Shown here in pieces: positions 32,663 to 39,223 of a stretch of DNA of 64,000 nt (the first letter of the stretch is position 1; every line of letters begins with the position of its first letter). This stretch comes from an uncultured Candidatus Actinomarina sp. (lineage in GTDB: Bacteria; Actinomycetota; Acidimicrobiia; Actinomarinales; Actinomarinaceae): NCBI GenBank assembly GCA_902595195.1, contig CACJPC010000001.1:86654-150653 (forward strand), written 5' to 3'. The notes under the pieces were generated by a model, which was given only the letters and a program-made list of their open reading frames with translations, searched no databases and was not told the origin of the DNA. Both the position numbers and the translations under genes were made by a program.

Positions 32663-33784
32663 TTGTTGAAATTTAAAACAACAACCAAGAGTATAAAAGA
32701 ATATGTTTTAACGGTGTCGAAAGCTATTGATGTTAAACCCTCCACCCCAGCACTCCAAGGTCTTTATATAAAAATTAAAGAAAACCTTTGTGAGTTAACA
32801 GGGTCCGATCTAGACCTGGTTATAAAAGCCAGTTTTGAAGTAGAGTCTATTGTCGACGGAGAATGCCTCGTCAATGCAAGAATTTTTTCAGAAGTGGTAA
32901 GGAAACTACCTTCAGGAGAAGTTGTCTTTTCAGACATAGGGAACGAGATCAAAGTAGAAACAAAAAAAACAGAATACAGGCTTAGAAAACTAGATCACTT
33001 AACTTATCCCAAAACACTACTAGAAGAACAACACAACACCTCTGAAAGTAAACAACTTAAAACAACAAACCTTTTTGATGCACTAAAAAAGGTAGGTGTA
33101 GCAGCATCTCCAGAGGGAGGAAAACCAATACTCACAGGAGTCTTCTTTGATAACGAAAACAACGAAACAAACCTCGTTTCAACCGACAGCTACAGGCTTG
33201 CAACCAATACCGTTTTTGACCTTCCAATTTCCGACGCAGGAATTGTTTCATTTAGGTCTTTAAACGAAACAATAAAAATATTTGAAGACAGCGAAGAAGA
33301 AATAAACATAAACTCAACAGAAAGAGAGCTACACTTTTACAACAAAAGATATTACACATCAGTAAGAAAACTAGAAGGAACGTTTCCAGAGTATAAAATG
33401 TTGTTTCCTAAAGAAAATCTTTTTTCAATAGAAGTTGATAAAAAATCTATATTGGAATCACTAGACAGATCAACTGTTGTCGCAGAGGGTTTTATACCTG
33501 TAACCCTTAAGGTAGTGGATGACAAAACTCTTAATATCTCGTCTACCAATAAAGACATTGGTGGAGGCAACGAAGTGGTAGACATAAAAATATTAGGACT
33601 TGAAGTAGGAGACATTTCTGGTTTTGAAATATCGTTTAACCCAAACTATCTAATTCAAGGCATTGAAGTTTTGGAAGGAAACAAAGCTTATCTAAGGTTT
33701 TCTGGAAATGACAAACCAGCTGTTATTCAAGGAGAAGAAGAACACTACAAGTATTTATTAATGCCTGTTAGAACGAACCAATAA
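32663..33784 (+). CDS. dnaN: DNA polymerase III beta sliding clamp
   Basis: TTG start after AAGAGG, a three-domain clamp pattern, and a C-terminal LLMPVR. Confidence 0.9.
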   Translation: MLKFKTTTKSIKEYVLTVSKAIDVKPSTPALQGLYIKIKENLCELTGSDLDLVIKASFEVESIVDGECLVNARIFSEVVRKLPSGEVVFSDIGNEIKVETKKTEYRLRKLDHLTYPKTLLEEQHNTSESKQLKTTNLFDALKKVGVAASPEGGKPILTGVFFDNENNETNLVSTDSYRLATNTVFDLPISDAGIVSFRSLNETIKIFEDSEEEININSTERELHFYNKRYYTSVRKLEGTFPEYKMLFPKENLFSIEVDKKSILESLDRSTVVAEGFIPVTLKVVDDKTLNISSTNKDIGGGNEVVDIKILGLEVGDISGFEISFNPNYLIQGIEVLEGNKAYLRFSGNDKPAVIQGEEEHYKYLLMPVRTNQ

Positions 33785-34143: not shown

Positions 34144-36069
34144 GTGTCTAAAAAAGATTCAAATAATAGTTATGATTCAAAAGATATAAAAATTCTTGAG
34201 GGTCTAGAAGCAGTTAGAAAGCGCCCTGCAATGTATATTGGATCTACAGGTCCAAATGGATTACACCACCTAATTTGGGAAGTTTTAGACAACTCTGTTG
34301 ATGAAGCTATGGCTGGAAGATGTTCTAAGATAAAAGTTAGTCTAGAAAAAAACGGTTCAGTTACTGTTGAAGACGACGGAAGCGGAATACCAGTAAAACC
34401 GCACCCCAAAACAAAAATATCTGCACTCACAACAGTATTAACAACACTTCATGCTGGTGGAAAGTTTGAATCAGGAGCCTATACCGTTAGTGGTGGATTG
34501 CATGGAGTTGGAATATCTGTTGTTAACGCTTTATCAACATACGTTAAAGTAGAGGTTCAAAGAGACGGTCATTTTTGGAATCAAGACTTTGACTTGGGAA
34601 AACCAAAATCCAAAATCAAAAAAGGAAAAGTTTCAAAAAAAACAGGTACTAAAGTTAACTTTTTAGCAGATCCAGAAATATTTGATGAGACCCAAACATA
34701 TGATTACAACATAGTTGATGAAAGACTTAGACAAACTGCGTTTCTTAACAAAGGTTTGAAAATAACACTTGTTGACAACAGAGTTAAGCCACCCACAAAA
34801 GAAGAGTATCACTATAAAGGTGGCCTCACAGATTTTGTTGAATATTTAAATGACGGTTTTGATCCACTACATCAAAAAATAATTTCTTTTTCAGACCAAA
34901 CAAAAGACTCAGAAATCGAGGTTGCACTCCAGTGGAAAAACGAAGACGATGTAACAATAAAAAGCTTTGCTAACAACATACACACCCTAGAGGGTGGTAC
35001 TCATGAAGAAGGGCTAAGAACAGCTGTTACCAAAGCAATTAACGACTTTGCAAAAAAAAGAAATCTTCATTCGGACATATCTTTAACAGGAGACGACATA
35101 AGAGAAGGGCTTACAGGTGTGGTCTCTGTAAGGGTAAAAGAACCTCAATTCGAAGGACAGACAAAAACAAAATTAGGAAATACTGAAATGAAATCAAGGG
35201 TTCAAGTTCTAATTAATGAAGAGTTTCCAAAATGGTTAACCAAAAACACCAAAGAGGGTAGAGCAATAGTAGAAAGATGCGCAGTTGCTGCAAAAGCAAG
35301 AATGAGTGCAAAAAAAGCTAGAGAGCTCACCAAGCGTAAAAGCATTTTAGAGACCTCAGGCCTTCCAGGAAAACTTGCAGACTGCTCTTCAACAGACCCA
35401 ACAGAAAGTGAGTTGTTCATTGTAGAAGGAGACTCGGCAGCTGGTCCTGCCAAACAAGCACGAGACTCAAGAGTGCAAGCAATTCTGCCGATCAGGGGAA
35501 AGATTATAAACGTTCAAAAAGTTACAGAAAACAGAGCTCTTCAAAACGAAGAGATAAGCGCACTCATTAAAGCTATTGGTACCGGTATAAAGCTTCAGTT
35601 CAACGAAGAAGAGTCAAGATATGACAAAATAATATTTTTGACAGATGCTGATGTTGACGGTGCACATATTAGAACACTACTTCTTACATTCTTTTTTAAA
35701 TTTATGCCTGGTTTGATAACAAGTGGAAAAGTCTGGATATCAGAACCACCGTTATATCGAGTAAAAGCATCATCAGGAATAACATACTTAAAAGACGATG
35801 AAGCGCTGAATAAATTTAAAAAAGAAAACAAAAACAAAAAGTTTGATATAAGCAGATTCAAAGGGTTGGGAGAAATGAACGCTGGGGAGTTGTGGGACAC
35901 CGCAATGAATCCTGAGACTAGAACCTTAATTAAAGTTACACTTGCAGACGCTAAAGGTGCGATGGCGAAGGCTTCTGATATGTTTGAAATTTTAATGGGA
36001 AACGATGTTTCAAAAAGAAAACTTTTTATTGAAAAGAACGCTAAAGACGTGAGGTTTCTTGACGTATAA
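34144..36069 (+). CDS. gyrB: DNA gyrase subunit B
   Basis: GTG start after GGAGA. GHKL ATPase motifs (LEAVRKRPAMYIGS, GGLHGVG) and Toprim motifs (EGDSAGG, DADVDGAHI) are present. Confidence 0.95.
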   Translation: MSKKDSNNSYDSKDIKILEGLEAVRKRPAMYIGSTGPNGLHHLIWEVLDNSVDEAMAGRCSKIKVSLEKNGSVTVEDDGSGIPVKPHPKTKISALTTVLTTLHAGGKFESGAYTVSGGLHGVGISVVNALSTYVKVEVQRDGHFWNQDFDLGKPKSKIKKGKVSKKTGTKVNFLADPEIFDETQTYDYNIVDERLRQTAFLNKGLKITLVDNRVKPPTKEEYHYKGGLTDFVEYLNDGFDPLHQKIISFSDQTKDSEIEVALQWKNEDDVTIKSFANNIHTLEGGTHEEGLRTAVTKAINDFAKKRNLHSDISLTGDDIREGLTGVVSVRVKEPQFEGQTKTKLGNTEMKSRVQVLINEEFPKWLTKNTKEGRAIVERCAVAAKARMSAKKARELTKRKSILETSGLPGKLADCSSTDPTESELFIVEGDSAAGPAKQARDSRVQAILPIRGKIINVQKVTENRALQNEEISALIKAIGTGIKLQFNEEESRYDKIIFLTDADVDGAHIRTLLLTFFFKFMPGLITSGKVWISEPPLYRVKASSGITYLKDDEALNKFKKENKNKKFDISRFKGLGEMNAGELWDTAMNPETRTLIKVTLADAKGAMAKASDMFEILMGNDVSKRKLFIEKNAKDVRFLDV

Positions 36070-38615
36070 TGCCAGCTAAAAAACCACCATCAAAAAAACC
36101 AGCAGCTAAAAAACCAGCAGCTAAAAAACCACCATCAAAAAAACCAGCAGCTAAAAAACCAGCAGCTAAAAAACCAGCAGCTAAACAATCTGTAAAAGAA
36201 GAAAAAAACACTGACAACACATCAAATGGAACTATTGCTGTAGAAGACGAAATATCGAAGTCTTTTTTAGACTACGCAATGTCTGTAATCGTATCAAGAG
36301 CTTTGCCAGATGTTAAGGACGGTTTAAAGCCAGTTCAGAGAAGAATTTTGTATTCTATGTATGAAACGGGTATAAGACCAACAGGTCCATTTAGAAAATG
36401 TTCAAAAGTCGTTGGTGATGTAATGGGTAATTATCACCCTCACGGCAATGATGCAATTTATGGAACACTAGTAAGGCTTGGACAAAACTTTAGTACAAGA
36501 TACCCACTTATCGAGCCCCAAGGCAACTTTGGAACACCCGACGATCCACCCGCAGCTATGAGATACACAGAGTCACGAATGTCATCTCTCTCATCACAAT
36601 TATTGGATGGAATTGATGAGGATACTGTAAACTTTGAACCAAACTATTCAGGCGAAACATCAGAGCCTAAAGTTTTACCTGCAAGATTTCCAAACCTCCT
36701 TGTTAACGGTGCAGAAGGAATTGCTGTAGCAATGGCAACAAATATGCCGCCATACAACCTTAGAGAGATAACAGAAGCTGTTAAATACACTGTTGAAAAC
36801 AAGGATGTAAAACCAAAAGACTATCTAAAAATAATTAAAGGACCGGATTTCCCAACGGGTGGTCTTGTTGTTGATACACCAACAATTAAAGAAGCAATAT
36901 TAAAAGGAAGAGGATCAATCAAAATAAGAGCTGTTGCTGATGTAGAAGAACTAGGCAGAGGTAGGTCTGCAATAGTTGTTAAAGAATTACCCTACCAAGC
37001 ATCTACAGACCGAATTATGGAAAAAATTGCAACACTTGTTCAAGACAAGAAACTCCTGGGAATTTCTGATCTTAGGAACGAAAGTAGTGACAGGAACGGA
37101 ACAAGATTAGTTGTCGAGCTAAAAAGAGATGCAGTTCCACAAGTTGTACTTAATCAACTTTTTAAACAAACTCAACTACAAGACACTTTTTCCGTAAACT
37201 CAGTAGCTCTTGTTGAAGGAGTTCCAAAAGTACTTTCAGTTCCTGAGTTAATTAAATATTATATTGATCATCAAATCGATGTAATACAAAGAAGAACAAA
37301 ACACAGACTACAAAAAGCCGAAAACAGACTCCATATAGTAGAAGGCTTGCTTCTGGCTTTAAAAAAGATTGACCAAATTATTAAAGTCATAAAAGCCTCA
37401 AAAGATGTAGACACAGCAAGAAAATCTTTAATGACAAAATTTAAACTTAGTGAGATACAGGCTTCTCACATATTGGATATGCCCCTTAGGAGACTAACCG
37501 CGCTTGAAATGGAAAAACTAGAAGAAGAAAAAAAAGACCTAAAAGAAACAATCAAAGAACTAACTTCAATTTTAAAAAGTCGAGCAAAACAAGATAAGAT
37601 TTTAATCGAAGAACTAGAAGCAATTACCGACAAGTTTGGCGACGAAAGAAGATCAAGAATTGTTCCAGACGTTGGCGAGGTTTCAATAGAAGACCTTATT
37701 GAAGATGAAGAAATTATTGTATCTGTATCGGCAAATGGATATGTAAAATCTGTACCATCAACTTCATACAAAAAGCAAGGCAGAGGCGGCAAAGGGGTTA
37801 AAGCTGCTTCATCAAACGAAGATGTCATAGAGCACCTTCTTTCTACTTCTGTACACTCATATCTTTTATTCTTTACAGACCGCGGAAAAGTATATCGGGC
37901 CAAAGCACATGAAATTCCAAAAACCAACAGAACAGCAAAGGGTTCTTTAATTCAAAATGTTCTTTCGATGGGACAAGACGAAAAGGTGCAAGCAATTATT
38001 GATACAAGAGACTACGAAACTGAGAAGTTTTTACTAATAATGACAGAAAAAGGAACAGTTAAAAAATCTAGTTTTAAGGATTTTGATTCGAACTACAAAT
38101 CCTTACAAGCAATAAAACTAAAAGACGAAGATAGGGTTGTTTCTGTAAAAACGACCTCCGGCAAAGAAGATGTCATACTTGTTTCTCAAAACGGGCAAGC
38201 AATTAGATTTGATGAGACCAACCTTAAACCCCAAGGAAGAACAGCAATGGGTGTGAGGGGAATAAAACTTAGAGAGGGAGACAAGGTTGTAGGTGCAGCT
38301 ACCTCTAGAGATGAAACCCTCCTATTTATTACAGCTAAGGGATATGGGAAACGTACGAAACTTGATGAATTTAGAAGAGCAGGAAGAGGCGGCATGGGAG
38401 TGAAAGCTCTTAAAATTACGGAAAGTAAAGGAAATTTAGTTGGAGCAAGGTCTGTAGATGAAGATACCGAGGTTATGCTTATGAGTACAGGCGGTACTGC
38501 AATAAGATGTGCAGTAAAGCAAATAAAACAAATGAGTAGATCAGCACAAGGAGTAAGGGTTATGAAGCTGTCTTCTGAAGAAGAAGTTTCAGCTTTCATA
38601 CCTATAAAGAGCTAA
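36069..38615 (+). CDS. gyrA: DNA gyrase subunit A with N-terminal PAAKK-repeat extension
   Basis: A TAATG overlap with gyrB. The canonical core starts near residue 60 (SFLDYAMSVIVSRALPDVKDGLKPVQRRILY). Active-site and beta-pinwheel regions are present. Confidence 0.95.
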   Translation: MPAKKPPSKKPAAKKPAAKKPPSKKPAAKKPAAKKPAAKQSVKEEKNTDNTSNGTIAVEDEISKSFLDYAMSVIVSRALPDVKDGLKPVQRRILYSMYETGIRPTGPFRKCSKVVGDVMGNYHPHGNDAIYGTLVRLGQNFSTRYPLIEPQGNFGTPDDPPAAMRYTESRMSSLSSQLLDGIDEDTVNFEPNYSGETSEPKVLPARFPNLLVNGAEGIAVAMATNMPPYNLREITEAVKYTVENKDVKPKDYLKIIKGPDFPTGGLVVDTPTIKEAILKGRGSIKIRAVADVEELGRGRSAIVVKELPYQASTDRIMEKIATLVQDKKLLGISDLRNESSDRNGTRLVVELKRDAVPQVVLNQLFKQTQLQDTFSVNSVALVEGVPKVLSVPELIKYYIDHQIDVIQRRTKHRLQKAENRLHIVEGLLLALKKIDQIIKVIKASKDVDTARKSLMTKFKLSEIQASHILDMPLRRLTALEMEKLEEEKKDLKETIKELTSILKSRAKQDKILIEELEAITDKFGDERRSRIVPDVGEVSIEDLIEDEEIIVSVSANGYVKSVPSTSYKKQGRGGKGVKAASSNEDVIEHLLSTSVHSYLLFFTDRGKVYRAKAHEIPKTNRTAKGSLIQNVLSMGQDEKVQAIIDTRDYETEKFLLIMTEKGTVKKSSFKDFDSNYKSLQAIKLKDEDRVVSVKTTSGKEDVILVSQNGQAIRFDETNLKPQGRTAMGVRGIKLREGDKVVGAATSRDETLLFITAKGYGKRTKLDEFRRAGRGGMGVKALKITESKGNLVGARSVDEDTEVMLMSTGGTAIRCAVKQIKQMSRSAQGVRVMKLSSEEEVSAFIPIKS
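36072..36186 (+). repeat. in-frame 15-nt tandem repeat (CCAGCAGCTAAAAAA / CCACCATCAAAAAAA) encoding PAKK-PPSKK-PAAKK-PAAKK-PPSKK-PAAKK-PAAKK-PAAKQ
   Basis: Read directly. There is a higher-order 45-nt unit, and the repeat occupies codons 2-39 of gyrA. Confidence 0.95.
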
Positions 38616-38617
38616 AA

Positions 38618-39223
38618 ATGGTCAGAGTAAACAGAGTAAGAAGAATAATCAGAAAAATAGACCCTTGGACCGTATTAAAAGTCACGCTAGTACTTAATTT
38701 TGTTGTTGCATTAACGGTGGTGCTTGGATTATCAATAATGTGGGTTTTATTGGTTAACGCAGGAGTTCCACAAGGCCTTGAAGATATTGCAAGAAGACTG
38801 GCGCTTCTTGATCAAGATGCCTCGCTTGTCGGAAATATTGAAACACTCTTTACAAGTGTAGTTTCTTTAGCAGCAGTTTATATGCTGACCCAAACAGCCC
38901 TCGCTACTATCGGCGCCTTTTTCTACAACCTCGTTTCAGACCTCGTTGGGGGTATTGAAGTGGTTGTATTAGAGGAGTCTCATTTAGAAACACCTCAGAA
39001 GATAACAACAGAGGAAGTTAAAACTCAGAAAAAAAACGAACAAAAAGAAACAGTTCTGATGTCGATTGTAAATTCAATTAAAAAGGTGAGACAAGAATCC
39101 TCAGAAGAGGCAAGTTTACCTAACGAAGATTTACCAAGACCAGACGTCCCAAGAGATATTGAAGAACCCACTCTTATGGATGCATTAAAAAACACAGAAA
39201 ACGAAGAAGACGAAGAAAACTAA
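38618..39223 (+). CDS. DUF3566-type membrane protein conserved downstream of gyrA in Actinobacteria
   Basis: RKIDPWTVLKVTLVLNFVVAL... plus a second helix and an acidic tail. The synteny matches the Rv0007 position. Confidence 0.75.
   Translation: MVRVNRVRRIIRKIDPWTVLKVTLVLNFVVALTVVLGLSIMWVLLVNAGVPQGLEDIARRLALLDQDASLVGNIETLFTSVVSLAAVYMLTQTALATIGAFFYNLVSDLVGGIEVVVLEESHLETPQKITTEEVKTQKKNEQKETVLMSIVNSIKKVRQESSEEASLPNEDLPRPDVPRDIEEPTLMDALKNTENEEDEEN

Follow-up and report, generated by a model that had tools for sequence, protein, structure and literature searches.

A conserved lysine-repeat tail at the N-terminus of gyrase subunit A in Candidatus Actinomarina and its putative role as a DNA tether

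Why does the A subunit of DNA gyrase in a marine actinobacterium begin with a run of lysine repeats, and is this run a working part of the enzyme? The question is raised by a 64,000-nucleotide (nt) stretch of DNA from an uncultured Candidatus Actinomarina sp. (assembly GCA_902595195.1, contig CACJPC010000001.1, positions 86,654 to 150,653 of the forward strand), hereafter the window, to which all coordinates refer unless a contig is named. The window has a guanine-cytosine (GC) content of about 35%, and the source genome, which is 79% complete, amounts to 0.93 megabases spread over 29 contigs. Its gyrA (36069..38615, + strand) encodes 848 residues including an N-terminal tail built of short Lys/Ala/Pro repeats, which an earlier note, made from the sequence alone, had interpreted as an extra DNA-clamping element.

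The start of the gene was examined at the levels of DNA and protein. The gyrB stop codon TAA occupies 36067-36069 and the gyrA ATG occupies 36069-36071, so that the two codons share one A in a TAATG overlap. The translation opens MPAKKPPSKKPAAKKPAAKKPPSKKPAAKKPAAKKPAAKQSVKEEKNTDNTSNGTIAVEDEISKSFLDYAMSVIVSRALPDV. Residues 1-40 (36069..36188, + strand) form the tail and consist of eight xxxKK pentads, MPAKK, PPSKK, PAAKK, PAAKK, PPSKK, PAAKK, PAAKK and, as the last, PAAKQ; they contain 15 lysines and no acidic residue. A polar and acidic linker of residues 41-55 (SVKEEKNTDNTSNGT; 36189..36233, + strand) follows, which differs among species, and then the canonical N-terminal arm of GyrA (IAVEDEISKSFLDYAMSVIVSRALPDV), whose start (IAVEDEISKSFLDYAMSVI; 36234..36290, + strand) was placed by alignment to solved GyrA chains. 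Unlike the variable linker, the segment NG(T/A/S)IAVEDEISKSFLDYAMS is conserved. A tandem DNA repeat at 36073..36185 (+ strand) underlies the tail. Tandem Repeats Finder described it either with a period of 15 nt (7.5 copies, 88% matches, score 184) or with a perfect period of 45 nt (2.3 copies, 100% matches, score 208), and both scores are far above chance expectation. In this genome, no in-frame ATG, GTG or TTG was found between gyrA codon 1 and the conserved core, and no in-frame stop codon was found between the start and the core. The earlier note had reported the overlap with the gyrB stop, the eight pentads arising from 15-nt repeats, and the lack of an in-frame stop or an alternative start near the core; our coordinates, translation and repeat analysis agree with it on each of these. 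Furthermore, an identical 848-residue GyrA, tail included, is present in a public protein collection.

The carrier of the tail is a genuine gyrase subunit. Residues 77-517 matched PF00521 (E 2.8e-155), and six PF03989 blades corresponded to the C-terminal beta-pinwheel of GyrA. Two motifs are present and invariant, AAMRYTE with the catalytic tyrosine (Y166) and, at residues 570-576, the GyrA box QGRGGKG. A beta-pinwheel with a GyrA box sets gyrase apart from topoisomerase IV, and the gene lies in a dnaN-gyrB-gyrA neighbourhood; the protein thus combines the breakage-reunion domain with its tyrosine, the pinwheel with its box, and the expected gene context. In the alignment to solved GyrA chains (E about 1e-43), residue 56 corresponded to residue 17 of Mycobacterium tuberculosis GyrA and residue 11 of Escherichia coli GyrA, and none of the solved chains that matched in the PDB covered residues 1-53. 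Hence, the extension amounts to about 40-45 residues. Many functional GyrB-GyrA fusion chains have been solved (e.g. 2xcs and 6gau), which places the N-terminus of GyrA next to the C-terminus of GyrB in the DNA-gate region. Only a single match to a GyrA/ParC-type gene was found in this 79%-complete genome, and one match per genome was found in Actinomarinales; these genomes therefore appear to have no type IIA topoisomerase besides gyrase. In one Actinomarina genome, an in-frame TAA interrupts gyrA (G010:C4:4473-6964) between residues ~464 and 487; the gene may be a pseudogene there, or the interruption may stem from a sequencing error or strain mixing.

Subsequently, the tail was compared across the order Actinomarinales, for which 65 genomes from two genera were available; the gyrA 5' end was read in 61 of them and was assembled in 54. 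All 54 assembled 5' ends, which span 78-100% GyrA identity, carried an in-frame tail with 4-10 lysine pairs (KK) each. In every one of the 54, the start codon overlapped the gyrB TAA or lay no more than 2 nt from it. In this genome a weak Shine-Dalgarno-like GAGG (36051..36054, + strand) is located 14 nt before the gyrA ATG, within the coding end of gyrB. Since none of the 54 orthologues has its start more than 2 nt from the gyrB TAA, gyrA is probably initiated by translational coupling to gyrB. For statistics on the tail itself, the 54 genomes were pooled with about 120 metagenome-derived Actinomarina GyrAs, which gave 135 distinct tails. Their composition was K 41%, A 25.5%, P 18.4% and T 10.5%, with D and E together at 0.3%. 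The spacing from one lysine pair to the next was exactly 5 residues in 733 of the 763 intervals (96%), while the three spacer positions drifted among P, A, T, S, V and Q. In some tails, such as PPAKKPAVKKSQAKKSATKKTSAKKPATKKPPAKK of L006, the DNA has lost its repetitiveness, yet the lysine pairs have stayed in phase. The lysine codons vary synonymously (AAA 576, AAG 117), and all insertions and deletions in the tail comprise whole codons. The phase of the lysine pairs is thus kept while the spacers drift, acidic residues are nearly excluded and the lysine codons vary synonymously, a pattern which points to selection on the protein and is unlike that expected for a non-coding spacer or a product of neutral slippage. 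These comparisons indicate that the tail is maintained as a periodic polycation.

In one Actinomarina subclade (L011, L042, L044-L046, L054 and L056), an in-frame ATG directly follows the tail (KKAEMNGAIAVEDE). This codon lies about 20 codons ahead of the DYAMS motif, near the start position of tail-less GyrAs, and is absent in the genome studied here.

The number of pentads differs between close relatives. Among GyrAs that are 98-100% identical in the aligned part, three (G017, G058 and G064) have 5 pentads, three (G044, G045 and G075) have 6 and one (G068) has 7, compared with 8 here, and the length differences correspond to whole 15-, 30- or 45-nt units. The variation in length between strains that had been predicted from the perfect DNA repeats was therefore borne out. 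Slippage or unequal recombination may add or remove pentads as whole units, so that tail length would vary between close strains with the frame unbroken. The repeat also affects assembly: in 7 of the 61 Actinomarinales assemblies (L021, L043, L053, L062-L064 and L066), a contig ends at or inside it. For four of these seven, the contig end on the gyrB side, with the 3' end of gyrB and the start of the tail, was recovered (L118, L119, L121 and L122), and one of the four belongs to the sole genome of the second genus (MAAKKTPAKKTPAKK...). Four further repeat matches in the order-wide DNA search turned out not to be new genes but these gyrB-side halves of broken gyrB-gyrA contigs. Because the repeat breaks short-read assemblies, copy numbers from metagenome-assembled genomes (MAGs) are to be read as estimates. 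This is of practical weight, as gyrA is a common marker gene and repeat counts in MAGs may mislead.

We also looked for the lysine module on other proteins. A six-frame scan of this genome detected no further Lys/Ala/Pro repeat run, and GyrA was the sole carrier. HU is plain here, with about 90-92 residues and no Lys/Ala/Pro tail, and TopA has no lysine repeats and an acidic end. Plain HU, in open frames of 92-120 residues, was likewise found in all 21 genomes of the genus that gave a match. Elsewhere in the class Acidimicrobiia the module sits on other proteins. The HU of G029 (L111, G029:C19) ends in (PAAKK)x14, with 80-87% identity to the GyrA tail, and that of G033 (L113, G033:C58) has a tail of similar kind; in the Ilumatobacteraceae genome G031 (L115), the second HU ends in KK repeats, and in G035 (L116, G035:C2) a CarD-like protein opens with about 25 pentads of the PVAKK type. 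Judged from these sequences, the pentad tail is a movable module of DNA-binding proteins in Acidimicrobiia, which in Actinomarina sits on GyrA. A Sir2/CobB deacetylase, sought as a possible regulator of the tail, was not found in this genome, whose completeness of 79% means that absence is not implied.

In 3 of the 65 Actinomarinales genomes, a free-standing micro-gene encodes the lysine repeat alone. The longest version is MPAKKQAAKKQAAKKTAAKKPAAKKTAAKKPAAKKKK, with 37 residues (L098, G006:C34, ~1097-1210), and the two others have 26 and 28 residues (G009:C1 ~221230, L100; G052:C40 ~338, L103). The micro-gene is equipped with a strong ribosome-binding site, GAAGGAG(G), and a hairpin/T-run terminator that shows compensatory changes, and its 3' untranslated region is conserved. 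In its repeat DNA, the micro-gene shares 90-95% identity with the repeats at the gyrA 5' end. The public protein collection contained none of the three peptides, and the syntenic site of the genome studied here (G000 C5:37236-37330) lacks the micro-gene.

The distribution of the tail outside the order was then considered. The tail was absent from 31 GyrA N-termini of other Acidimicrobiia families, including the family closest by GyrA identity (72-75%), with the exception of one Ilumatobacteraceae clade. The tail-less Acidimicrobiia GyrAs start 25-30 residues before DYAMS and have short acidic N-termini such as MADGHDVGIPSIDINQEVEKSFLDYAMS. In the exceptional clade, all four species of one Ilumatobacteraceae genus (L070 and L093-L095; G031, G135, G366 and G147) begin with MASKK(P/A)xKK..., and the same type of N-terminus was found in 86 related distinct metagenome sequences (within P0272-P0391). 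This tail has 7-11 basic residues in the first 35, is followed by a conserved PPxKPP...NLFxNPDSVQPVQLQ linker and is absent in sister genera of the same family. Since the sister genera lack it and the GyrA core shares only ~49% identity with that of Actinomarina, the comparison argues for a second, independent gain. Many class-wide GyrA matches started before query residue 30. Twelve of these, retrieved from outside the Ilumatobacteraceae genus, all proved to be read-through of the 3' end of gyrB in another frame, and a genuine tail lay behind only one early-starting match, that of G031. A word-indexed protein search with GyrA residues 1-80 returned Actinomarina only. The 50%-representative library contained a few other GyrA fragments with basic N-termini (P0138 and P0172).

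What, then, could the tail do? By its sequence it is of the actinobacterial lysine-repeat type, a terminal and nearly acid-free array of Lys/Ala/Pro repeats on a DNA-binding carrier. The closest precedent is TopA of Streptomyces coelicolor, another actinomycetotal topoisomerase with terminal tandem short Lys/Ala/Pro repeats, in which the repeats stabilise the enzyme-DNA complex and confer processivity; in the same study, lysine repeats were over-represented in DNA-binding proteins (PMC5714199). TopA is, however, a type IA enzyme with C-terminal repeats, whereas the tail described here is N-terminal on a type IIA gyrase. HupB/Hlp (MDP1) and HupS are HU proteins whose C-terminal tail, of the PAKKA type, has the same pentad chemistry, but there the tail is on a nucleoid-associated protein whose Actinomarina counterpart is tail-less. 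The lysine repeats of TopA and HupB lead us to infer that the tail binds DNA and affects gyrase activity, and we consider it quite likely that it acts as a sequence-independent electrostatic DNA tether on gyrase. In the proposed mechanism, the eight pentads encoded by the first 120 nt of gyrA would provide a tail of +15 charge joined through the polar linker of ~15 residues to the GyrA arm. The A2B2 enzyme would then bear two tails, which would emerge at the DNA gate next to the C-terminus/TOPRIM region of GyrB and raise the affinity and residence time of gyrase on DNA and hence its processivity or DNA capture. If gyrase is the sole type IIA enzyme, it must also decatenate, and the tether could help to capture the second duplex.

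Three points weigh against such a tether. Strzalka et al. tied lysine repeats to GC-rich chromosomes and discussed those of S. coelicolor TopA as an adaptation to them (PMC5714199), whereas the GC content here is ~35%, and the rationale may differ. Moreover, AlphaFold2, run with a 15-sequence alignment, gave residues 1-63 as coil with a predicted local distance difference test (pLDDT) score of 25-33, but the whole model was poor (mean pLDDT 44.9, predicted template modelling score 0.29), so that the predicted disorder of the tail is not separable from the general low confidence. Finally, the ATG after the tail in the one subclade makes a tail-less isoform by internal initiation possible there.

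Of the competing explanations, the one that survives best accepts that the tail is translated and selected but gives it a main partner other than the chromosomal duplex. Binding to RNA or polyphosphate is conceivable, as are partitioning of gyrase into a nucleoid condensate and modulation of the GyrB-GyrA interface or the ATPase gate. The tail does adjoin the GyrB C-terminus, polycationic low-complexity tails are promiscuous, and the free-standing peptide of three genomes suggests that the module can act detached from gyrase. On the other hand, DNA is the substrate of gyrase itself, and the characterised pentad carriers, TopA, HupS/HupB, Ku, FtsK and HrdB (PMC5714199), all bind DNA, as do HU and CarD, the carriers in class relatives. 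We therefore regard a partner other than DNA as unlikely, if still worth keeping in mind.

The DNA tether could also be part of a wider arrangement, in which the histone H1-like lysine module was moved off HU onto gyrase, and in some strains also onto a free peptide of 26-37 residues, gyrase doubles as a nucleoid organiser, and the number of pentads, changed by slippage, sets a strain-specific DNA affinity and supercoiling set-point. If so, pentad number would be a heritable, fast-tunable "rheostat" on global DNA topology; this is a speculative extension, to which we give little credence. The earlier note had suggested that the tail compensates for lost nucleoid proteins. The plain HU and repeat-less TopA of this genome fit a relocation of the module, but HU itself has not been lost. 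Furthermore, such compensation is not required for a tailed gyrase, because the Ilumatobacteraceae clade has both a tailed GyrA and a tailed HU.

It is very unlikely that the tail is a tolerated, slippage-driven expansion of low-complexity sequence at a permissive terminus in an A-rich genome, with no selected function. Perfect or near-perfect repeat units whose copy number differs between near-identical strains would suit such an origin, as would a preference for AAA lysine codons at about 35% GC. However, not one of the 54 genomes has lost the tail over their range of GyrA identity, and none falls below 4 lysine pairs. The KK phase is likewise held in nearly all intervals despite diverging spacers, including in tails such as that of L006 whose DNA is not repetitive, acidic residues are nearly excluded, and no other protein of this genome bears such a run. 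It is hardly credible that the repeat arose in assembly or is an untranslated spacer between gyrB and gyrA, the true start lying downstream. The GAGG is indeed weak and distant, and seven assemblies break at the repeat. However, this genome offers no in-frame canonical start between tail and core, an open frame with lysine periodicity is shared by 54 independent assemblies and more than 100 metagenome contigs, insertions and deletions are all of whole codons, and the start does not move away from the gyrB stop; the comparative data thus already contradict this explanation. Orthologues starting at a conserved downstream codon with a non-coding repeat, or an assembly artefact, had been named in the earlier note as what might refute its interpretation; no such start was seen among the orthologues, and the repeat recurred in 54 independent assemblies.

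Gyrase is essential, serves as a drug target and has been studied intensively. To our knowledge, the described terminal appendages of gyrase are limited to the acidic C-terminal tail of GyrA. In E. coli, this tail reportedly tunes the interaction with DNA and is auto-inhibitory, as Tretter and Berger are said to have found in 2012. It resembles the Actinomarina tail as a short terminal appendage of GyrA, disordered there and putatively here, but it has the opposite charge and lies at the opposite end; Actinomarina GyrA ends ...SAFIPIKS without an acidic tail. Chlamydial Hc2 (PF07382) and the C-terminal domain of eukaryotic histone H1 share a Lys/Ala/Pro-rich repeat composition with the tail, but the PF07382 match on residues 3-46 reached 27.3 bits, below the cut-off of 40, and reflects compositional resemblance rather than homology. 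Our search of the literature found no description of a GyrA whose N-terminus carries a basic or lysine-repeat tail. The module itself is known, whereas its carrier and its position are new. As a conserved polycation at the DNA gate, the N-terminal tail would be a new putative regulatory element in one of the most abundant and most streamlined groups of marine actinobacteria, and the two apparently independent gains in Acidimicrobiia suggest a general way to hold a topoisomerase on DNA with minimal nucleoid proteins.

From the list of open reading frames and family matches, dnaN was located at 32663-33784, upstream of gyrB, with a small open reading frame between them. Downstream of gyrA lies a gene for a DUF3566 membrane protein (38618..39223, + strand), the usual neighbour of gyrA in actinobacteria. 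The gyrB gene (34144..36069, + strand) encodes 641 residues and matched PF00204, PF00986, PF01751 and PF02518. GyrB also contains a lysine-rich loop, FDLGKPKSKIKKGKVSKKTGTKVNF, at residues ~170-195 (window positions ~34640-34720), directly ahead of the conserved KTGT motif; this loop may simply reflect the lysine bias of AT-rich DNA.

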